64,000 nt of DNA, from contig JARFYF010000012.1 in the NCBI GenBank assembly GCA_030265395.1, positions 30,325,643 through 30,389,642 on the forward strand, read 5' to 3'. Numbering within the stretch: the stretch's first letter is position 1; each line of letters opens with the position of its first letter. The DNA is from Rhina ancylostomus (lineage: Eukaryota). The translations under genes were made by a program, and so were the position numbers. The notes below the pieces were generated by a model. It ran no database searches, was not told where the DNA came from, and was given only the letters and a program-made list of their open reading frames with translations. Of this stretch, positions 43,039 to 59,194 are shown piece after piece.

Positions 43039-43242
43039 ATGTTCCTGCCCGGGGTTGACTACCTGTCGGCGCTGGCTACGGCTGTTGCCTCGCTNNNNNN
43101 NGTTCTGCTCCTACTCGCTGTCTCCAGACAGCTGTGGACCCTCGCCTGGAACGTGACCAGAGACAGGGACAACAAGCTGCCGCTTCCCAAAGGCTCGATG
43201 GGCTGGCCACTACTTGGAGAGACGCTGCACTGGATGGTACAG
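43039..43242 (+). CDS. CYP26C1: Cytochrome P450 26C1 coding exon 1
   Basis: gccATG; [19 protein letters not shown]...[47 protein letters not shown]: membrane anchor plus proline hinge ([11 protein letters not shown]); 204 nt, CAG|gtacaa donor; 7 Ns inside. Confidence 0.95.
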
Positions 43243-44186: not shown

Positions 44187-44411
44187 GGTGCCAACTTCCA
44201 CGCTTCCAGGAGGGAGAAATACGGAAACGTCTTCAAAACGCACCTCCTGGGCAGGCCAGTGATCCGAGTGACAGGTGCGGAGAACATCCGCAAAGTCCTG
44301 ATGGGAGAGCACAGCTTGGTGAGCGCACAGTGGCCCCACAGCACCCGGATCCTCCTGGGCACCAACACGCTCGCCAATTCCAGCGGGGAGCTACACCGCC
44401 AGAGGAGGAGG
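44187..44411 (+). CDS. CYP26C1: CYP26C1 coding exon 2 (GC donor)
   Basis: Pyrimidine tract + cag; 225 nt [75 protein letters not shown]; ends AGG|gcaagt. Confidence 0.94.
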
Positions 44412-44489
44412 GCAAGTACCTTCGGGGTGGGGTGTGGCGGCATGGAGCAATCTCTGTACACGGCGCCAGATCAGAATGGAGACACGAAA

Positions 44490-45138: not shown

Positions 45139-45268
45139 CGCCATCCGGATCCTGCTCGGTCTCCGGGCAGCGGATCACCAGCTCGACTATCTCTCCTGCA
45201 TATTCGAGCAGCTCATGGAAAATATCTTCTCGCTGCCTTTGGATATTCCCTTCAGCGGCCTGCGTAAG
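45139..45268 (+). CDS. CYP26C1: CYP26C1 coding exon 3, visible 3' part (5' part in gap 44744-45138)
   Basis: AIRILLGLRAADHQLDYLSCIFEQLMENIFSLPLDIPFSGLRK then AAG|gtatca donor. Confidence 0.92.
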
Positions 45269-45980: not shown

Positions 45981-46136
45981 GGCATCAAAGCACGGAACGC
46001 ATTGCACGAGTACCTGGAAAAAGCGATCACTGAAAAGCTGCAGCAAAACAGTCCTGGTGCCTATCCCGACGCTTTGGATTTCATGCTGAATAGTGCGAGG
46101 AAGAACGGGAAGGAGCCGAGCCTTCAGGAACTAAAG
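45981..46136 (+). CDS. CYP26C1: CYP26C1 coding exon 4
   Basis: tgtttttaag acceptor; 156 nt GIKARNALHEYLEKAITEKLQQNSPGAYPDALDFMLNSARKNGKEPSLQELK; AAG|gtaatc donor. Confidence 0.95.
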
Positions 46137-58585: not shown

Positions 58586-59194
58586 GAATCTGCGGTTGAG
58601 CTGATCTTCGCCGCGTTCTCCACCACGGCGAGTGCCAGCACATCGCTGGTGCTGCTGCTCCTGCAGCACTCCCACGTCCTGCAGAAGGCGAGGCAGGAGC
58701 TCCAGCAGCACCGGCTGATCCCCAGTTGCCAATGCAACTGGCTCGTTGCCACCCGGGATAGAACCGGCGGCCAGATAAACAAGCTGGCTTTCCCCGAAAA
58801 CCCAAACCGGGTGAGCGAGTCCATGCAAAGGTGCGAGCGGCTGGTTGCCCGGGACAGTTTAGCCGGGGACAGCAGTTGCCGTCAGTCCGTTACTCTCGTG
58901 GATAAGGAGTGGCTGCAGATCGGCGCCCACCAAGGTCGTCCCGGCCAGGACAAGGAACACTTTCAGCCCTTCCCCTTTCGGAATAGTGTGTGTCGGGAAG
59001 TCGAGTGTCCCGAGGGGACGGCGGCGGAGAGTGAGAGGGGACTGCTGTGCGGGGACTGCGACTGCCGGCGCTCCCTGAGTCTGGAGGTCCTGGGACGTCT
59101 GCGTTATCTCGACTGTGTGGTGAAGGAGGTGCTCAGGTTGCTTCCCCCCGTGTCCGGGGGCTACAGGACAGCGCTGCAGACCTTTGAACTGAAT
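58586..59194 (+). CDS. CYP26C1: CYP26C1 coding exon 5 (I-helix, J-K insertion, ExxR motif)
   Basis: ctctcttcag acceptor; ESAVELIFAAFSTTASASTSLVLLLLQH...LRYLDCVVKEVLRLLPPVSGGYRTALQTFELN; AAT|gtaagt donor; 609 nt with no stop. ESAVEL and KEVLRLLPPVSGG are C1-type. Final exon not found in the window. Confidence 0.94.

Follow-up and report, generated by a model that had tools for sequence, protein, structure and literature searches.

The window analysed was a stretch of 64,000 nucleotides of the genome of the ray Rhina ancylostomus, which holds exons 1-5 of a CYP26C1 gene; exon 6, with the heme cysteine, lies beyond it (L005:3518 onward). The features of the gene are listed below, with helices J and J' named after P450 convention.

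43039..43242, + strand: CYP26C1 exon 1, N-terminal membrane anchor, from an ATG to a GT donor (tblastn with Pristis P0001, 93%)
44187..44411, + strand: CYP26C1 exon 2, with a probable GC donor at its 3' end (AG/GCAAGT)
45140..45268, + strand: CYP26C1 exon 3, readable 3' part, 100% to P0001 residues 193-235, GT donor
45981..46136, + strand: CYP26C1 exon 4, 156 nt, whose 3' end is spliced to exon 5 in both contigs, X1 and X2
58586..59194, + strand: CYP26C1 exon 5, 609 nt, with helices I and J, the loop, J' and K (ExxR)
58712..59038, + strand: 109-aa insert of the first-pass annotation; its 5' edge (58711/58712) is the CYP26A1 intron site and its first residues are conserved core
58727..58735, + strand: first conserved CxC (CQC), 10 and 12 residues past the helix-J Glu, each Cys in 61/63 sequences
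58736..59056, + strand: hypervariable 107-aa loop, predicted disordered, single-copy DNA, without a Pfam match
59057..59065, + strand: second conserved CxC (CDC), aligning with the lone CxC of CYP26B1, its Cys in 58/63 and 62/63 sequences

The start of intron 2 (44406-44417) reads AG/GCAAGT, from the DNA alone a probable GC-AG intron. The motifs AFSTT and KEVLR were found in exon 5 and FGGGVRSCIG in exon 6, and the window protein matched Pfam PF00067; the I-helix TT, the K-helix ExxR and the heme FxxGxRxCxG are core signatures of P450 enzymes (PMC7151129). The best match was CYP26C1 of Pristis (88% over exon 5 and 98% over the 443 columns outside the loop), and in a 28-row tree calculated with the loops removed the window gene was sister to Pristis C1 (97/89) inside the C1 clade (99/98). 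By this grouping with gnathostome C1, and not with B1 or A1, the gene is CYP26C1. On this contig and strand, a CYP26A1-type gene was located about 28 kb downstream of exon 5; the adjacency of C1 and A1 is known for CYP26C1 (PMC5247814, PMC10350081). Known CYP26C1 enzymes hydroxylate all-trans and 9-cis retinoic acid (PMC7151129), as the ray protein would be expected to do. The genome has four CYP26 genes, namely C1, A1, B1 on C52 (L015) and a divergent gene on C74. The divergent gene (L008:5595-5879) has a 285-nt exon 5 without CxC and is possibly the chondrichthyan CYP26B2 mentioned in PMC5247814. Four C1-type proteins, P0015, P0018, P0117 and P0374, are labelled CYP26B1 or B1-like by their sources, and P0015 and P0374 were placed in the C1 clade by the 28-row tree. 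Leucoraja P0122 and Latimeria P0318 also fell in the C1 clade, though PMC5247814 could not find the gene there.

Exon 5 is an open frame of 203 codons with canonical splice sites (acceptor TTCAG/, donor /GTAAGT) and a GC3 of 0.73; each of the other two forward frames contains four stops. The first-pass annotation had described within it a cysteine-rich insertion between helices J and K, and much of the description held to the letter: ELQQH and GLLCG are separated by exactly 109 residues, nine cysteines occur from the insert start through CDCRR (within 120 residues), and a CxC stands at each end of the insert. The insert is real, but its edges were off by about 8 codons, the variable part being the 107 residues between the two CxC motifs. 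Only 2.4% of 20,000 base shuffles kept the insert open by chance, and of 11,285 windows of that length in intron 4 just one was open; the insert frame is therefore open beyond chance. The window codes for Arg at 58712-58714; Gly stands there in the relatives X1 and X4 as well as in most orthologues (QQH-G-L), and position 58712 differs from both X1 and X4. A Pfam search of the loop gave no family match. A DNA search with the loop against its own genome returned one match, the loop itself, in what is a weak test, since very common words were skipped; an exonised repeat or mobile element was set aside because this weak search found no other genome copies.

Contigs X1 and X2, both from one study of a related organism, span the whole of exon 5 with 48 differences in 612 nt and no gaps. 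At their loose ends, 30 of 30 letters agreed with the last bases of exon 4 and the first bases of exon 6, indicating that they are spliced mRNA, although their RNA label is a guess by the search tool and none of the four runs listed is recorded as RNA; this status follows from the exon joins and holds for the related organism, not for the window's own species. No joint was seen inside exon 5 in either contig, although contigs drop rare variants. The RNA check over 58712-59038 that had been proposed earlier thus showed the segment retained in the relative without skips, and the view of an expanded loop that is expressed and kept in frame was borne out by an exon 5 left uncut in spliced contigs. 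For relative X4, six indels were listed in the flanking introns and none in exon 5. The sole joint seen inside the exon was in an X4 record, a different one with a short loop, which is probably a paralogue. In a skate cluster at 90%, 12 unnamed proteins of 603-604 aa, located on contigs of 2.5-3.1 kb, all carried the long loop (12/12); the 15 members listed out of 29 comprised these 12 full-length proteins, one last-exon fragment and two named models, and as a 90% cluster need not contain short forms, the count shows the presence of the long loop only.

Loop length was compared as the I-to-K segment, measured from the I-helix TT to KEVLR, in orthologues hand-picked from score-ranked lists (best 120 of 591 and best 120 of 637 matches). 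The segment is 172 aa long in the window and likewise 172 aa in Pristis. From lamprey to marsupials, 54 long-form orthologues ranged from 125 to 193 aa, a range whose lower bounds are partly a matter of choice, since 27 short models of non-placental species were left out. Lengths were 169 aa in the sea lamprey, 190 in the coelacanth, 136-193 in 14 chondrichthyans, 152-161 in 13 squamates, 158-183 in six turtles and a crocodilian, 130-144 in 37 birds, 125-166 in six monotreme or marsupial sequences and 85-191 in 12 ray-finned sequences. Twelve amphibians gave 145-182 aa, the regular expression having missed two of 14, both of which have both CxC motifs. The nine placentals were far shorter (75-82 aa), and 27 CYP26B1 proteins gave 63-64 aa, parsing having missed 18 of 45; 6 of 54 B1 proteins stayed unparsed. 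A hagfish row of 84 aa may itself be a short model. The unnamed protein P0145, C1-like and of fish type, has a loop of tandem peptide repeats in a 191-aa segment without CxC. Long forms of CYP26C1 are already annotated in public databases. The loop had been called very long for a CYP26C1, a judgement which does not stand: 16 of the 54 long-form orthologues equal or exceed the window, and 48 of the 54 reach at least 150 aa. Such lengths are usual, yet the four end cysteines proved to be conserved, so that the doubt raised beforehand, that long inserts might be the norm and hold no conserved Cys, was right in its first half only. Among the sequences compared, a long loop is the usual state in vertebrates, and the placental form of CYP26C1 is the shortened one.

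The 27 database models of non-placental CYP26C1 that were left out (P0009, P0136, P0016, P0137, P0138, P0140, P0032, P0141, P0096, P0039, P0105 and others) lack most of the loop. They could be read as evidence of an exitron, i.e. of a loop spliced out of part of the transcripts to give a short, placental-like isoform; Hypanus, Cetorhinus and Hemiscyllium showed only short models among those listed, and the window itself has a fair internal donor at 58811. The junctions of these models are, however, inconsistent between and within species, with four different ones in Cetorhinus alone, and their lengths gather near the values of placental C1 (75-84) or B1 (60-65), as would be expected of models forced by reference proteins. 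X1 and X2, as far as contigs can tell, have no such joint. A long and a short model were found side by side in Callorhinchus (189/62), Pelodiscus (176/79) and Petaurus (154/77). The exitron is accordingly given little probability, and the short models are likely annotation artefacts, shaped by the short proteins used as reference. Many CYP26C1 models of sharks, turtles, birds and marsupials seem to lose the loop to invented introns, which would mislead comparative work.

The end cysteines behaved differently from the loop between them. Among 63 sequences other than those of birds and ray-finned fishes, the four were kept in 61, 61, 58 and 62, at a fixed, ungapped spacing that holds whatever the loop length, while neighbouring residues vary; the expectation that the end CxC motifs matter was thereby supported. 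Birds kept the second pair in 36 of 37 sequences and the first in 17 of 37 in strict form or 32 of 37 in a looser one. Both pairs were absent as a set from ray-finned fishes (0/12), yet the loops were kept. Variant pairs were CxxC in skates and lamprey, CxxH in Callorhinchus, and CxxC, HxxC or CC in birds. CYP26B1 of species other than the window's has a lone CxC at the position of the second C1 pair (46 of 48 read). A His three residues ahead of this lone CxC, also in 46/48, could be a third ligand. The outgroup CYP26-like representatives had short segments and no CxC there, as judged from 132 of 147 that were placed, a few of them wrongly; the misplaced ones are multi-domain or fused records. 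Read from these alignments, the ancestral state of a long loop with two Cys pairs probably predates the split of lampreys and jawed vertebrates. No description of the loop or of its cysteines was found in the literature in the parts available; the alignment figures of PMC10350081 and PMC5247814 and the original cloning papers may have it.

Compared with X1, the insert contains 22 non-synonymous and 12 synonymous differences, giving a dN/dS of 0.51, which in this one species pair is not clearly below 1 (p=0.08 against neutrality); between the CxC motifs the ratio is 0.64. The flanks contain 3 non-synonymous and 11 synonymous differences, and the contrast between insert and flanks (Fisher p=0.01) shows in these coding sequences that selection is relaxed inside the loop relative to its flanks. 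Identity in the loop falls to 10-35 of 107 residues while the flanks keep 74-88 of 96 (P0004-P0018). This bears on the proposal of a Cys-rich module, specific to the lineage of sharks and rays, with a metal, redox or interaction role. The nine cysteines in 120 residues of the window had spoken for it, and one of the five inner ones is indeed kept in 8 of 11 chondrichthyan relatives; the other four are kept in only 2, 3, 1 and 5 of the 11, skate loops have 0-1 inner Cys, and the inner Cys content in the group is 2.3%. As the loop also lacks a Pfam family and has low pLDDT, the module is considered largely refuted, with a very small probability left to it.

It had also been suggested that the insert arose from an intron, CYP26A1 having one at the equivalent position. 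The position is correct: in A1 of this genome, ELQEQ and GLLS are separated by a 199-nt intron, at a site that matches 58711/58712 of the window and thus the 5' boundary drawn for the insert. A further hint might be that zebrafish CYP26C1 is given seven exons in Table 1 of PMC3012610, against six here, if the extra intron should lie in the loop. The residues directly past the site are, however, conserved core in C1 (G in 36/63, L in 56/63, then CxC at +10 and +12), A1's GLL aligns with the G-L-I directly past the site, and the variable part begins 8 codons later. The inserted span has neither a GT start nor an AG end, its likeness to the A1 intron was reached by 250 of 300 shuffles, and the intronless 285-nt exon of the C74 paralogue has no insert. 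GLLC, which recalls CYP26A1, reads RRLC, WLC, RSC or QLSR in relatives, so this likeness was discarded as chance. An exonised ancestral intron is therefore scarcely credible. The other suggestion, that a CxC segment was duplicated, is plausible in view of the single CxC of CYP26B1 against the two of C1, but cannot be shown from the DNA, in which 14-16 of 36 bases are alike. The protein sequences would fit such a duplication in an early gene of B1/C1 type, with either a gain in C1 or a loss in B1.

For structure, an AlphaFold model of the Pristis protein based on 150 rows was used, an earlier model on 49 close rows having been poor in the core (mean pLDDT 62). Its mean pLDDT was 85.6, with 469 residues at 90 or above. 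Values below 50 were obtained at 352-428 and 432-443, between the CxC motifs at 335-337 and 445-447, and the ten-residue blocks holding these motifs reached 79 and 67. The loop is thus predicted to be disordered on an intact P450 core. In the alignment with cyanobacterial CYP120A1, residues 327-449 faced 285-291, so that about 5 residues bridge what here spans about 121, indicating that the two CxC motifs lie near each other. This face of P450s of the endoplasmic reticulum is the cytosolic side, where disulfides are unlikely.

Taken as a whole, these results lean somewhat towards an ordinary ray CYP26C1 loop that is long, fast-changing and disordered, its base clamped by four cysteines, most likely via one zinc. 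The description of the loop is held with high confidence; the Cys4 zinc step, read from residue conservation, is put ahead of acylation or redox roles as a tentative choice that falls short of an even chance. Where a compact P450 has about 5 residues, the loop would hang off the cytosolic surface with its two ends close together; a Cys4 site at this point would keep helix J aligned with J'/K, which would leave the loop free to grow or shrink. In placentals the four cysteines were kept and the loop was cut down to about 14 residues; ray-finned fishes kept a loop and lost the Cys pairs. A zinc clasp is favoured by four conserved cysteines in two pairs and by variants (CxxC, CxxH, HxxC) that often keep ligand-type patterns. 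The lone CxC of B1, however, gives the second pair a role without the first, the ray-finned sequences (12/12 without both pairs, segments of 85-191 aa) show that a long loop can do without a clasp, and the strict first pair is a minority form in birds.

A role for each motif by itself, as the B1 motif suggests, would also be expected if the end cysteines tuned membrane contact or turnover through S-acylation or redox modification, the loop being a tolerated spacer. Acylation is common at CxC motifs that membrane proteins expose on their cytosolic face. The swaps to CxxC, CxxH and HxxC nevertheless look more like metal ligands, and a palmitoylation proteomics paper, in the part accessible, mentions CYP26B1 only as up-regulated (PMC10337253), which leaves this explanation unlikely. 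Still less weight is given to a regulatory function of the disordered loop, which as a tag for degradation or phosphorylation would set the half-life of the enzyme and so shape retinoic acid gradients. At least 125 aa are retained in many lineages, dN/dS is about 0.5, and the 107 residues include 12 S/T, 16 D/E and 3 K, all of which would suit such a tag; but no motif is common across classes, P0145 fills its loop with tandem repeats, and placentals have lost nearly all of it. The zinc clasp may be extended to a broader and rather doubtful proposal, that CYP26C1, including the human enzyme, has an unrecognised structural zinc site, in which two CxC motifs dating back about 500 million years would staple the base of a free surface loop. 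We know of no such zinc site in any P450. If it were true, the developmental retinoic-acid sink would respond to zinc or to redox state. Four cysteines outside the catalytic core that are nearly as conserved as the adjacent helices provide a lead to a possible site for a metal or a lipid; the enzyme itself has been connected with craniofacial and skeletal disorders (PMC7151129, PMC5167135, PMC7690606).

In comparison with known systems, the long loop, at first sight a lineage oddity, is an ordinary feature of CYP26C1. Cartilaginous-fish CYP26C1 (Pristis pectinata P0001, Mobula P0002, Heptranchias P0005, Leucoraja P0122) has the same CxC motifs, and the window differs from it only by lineage-level loop substitutions, with R and not G after QQH and an unshared GLLC. 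Placental C1 (P0078, 522 aa) has the same core and both CxC at the same spacing (C335/C337 and C352/C354), but about 14 residues between the pairs against 107 in the window, and no inner cysteines. CYP26B1 has one CxC at the place of C1's second pair, without the first pair and without the loop (63-64-aa segment). In CYP26A1 and invertebrate-type CYP26-like proteins, G-L-L/I stands right past helix J on the same P450 core, and CYP26A1 has its intron at the end of helix J and a 62-aa segment. The sea lamprey protein P0295 (634 aa), of CYP26B1/C1 type, has a 169-aa segment with Cys pairs at both ends, but these are CCxC and CxxC instead of CxC, the loop sequence is unrelated by eye, and its one-to-one orthology is not settled by the 28-row tree (see also PMC10350081). 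The closest solved structure is cyanobacterial CYP120A1 (PDB 2VE3), with an E value of 1e-86 by sequence and a TM score of 0.90-0.94 by fold.
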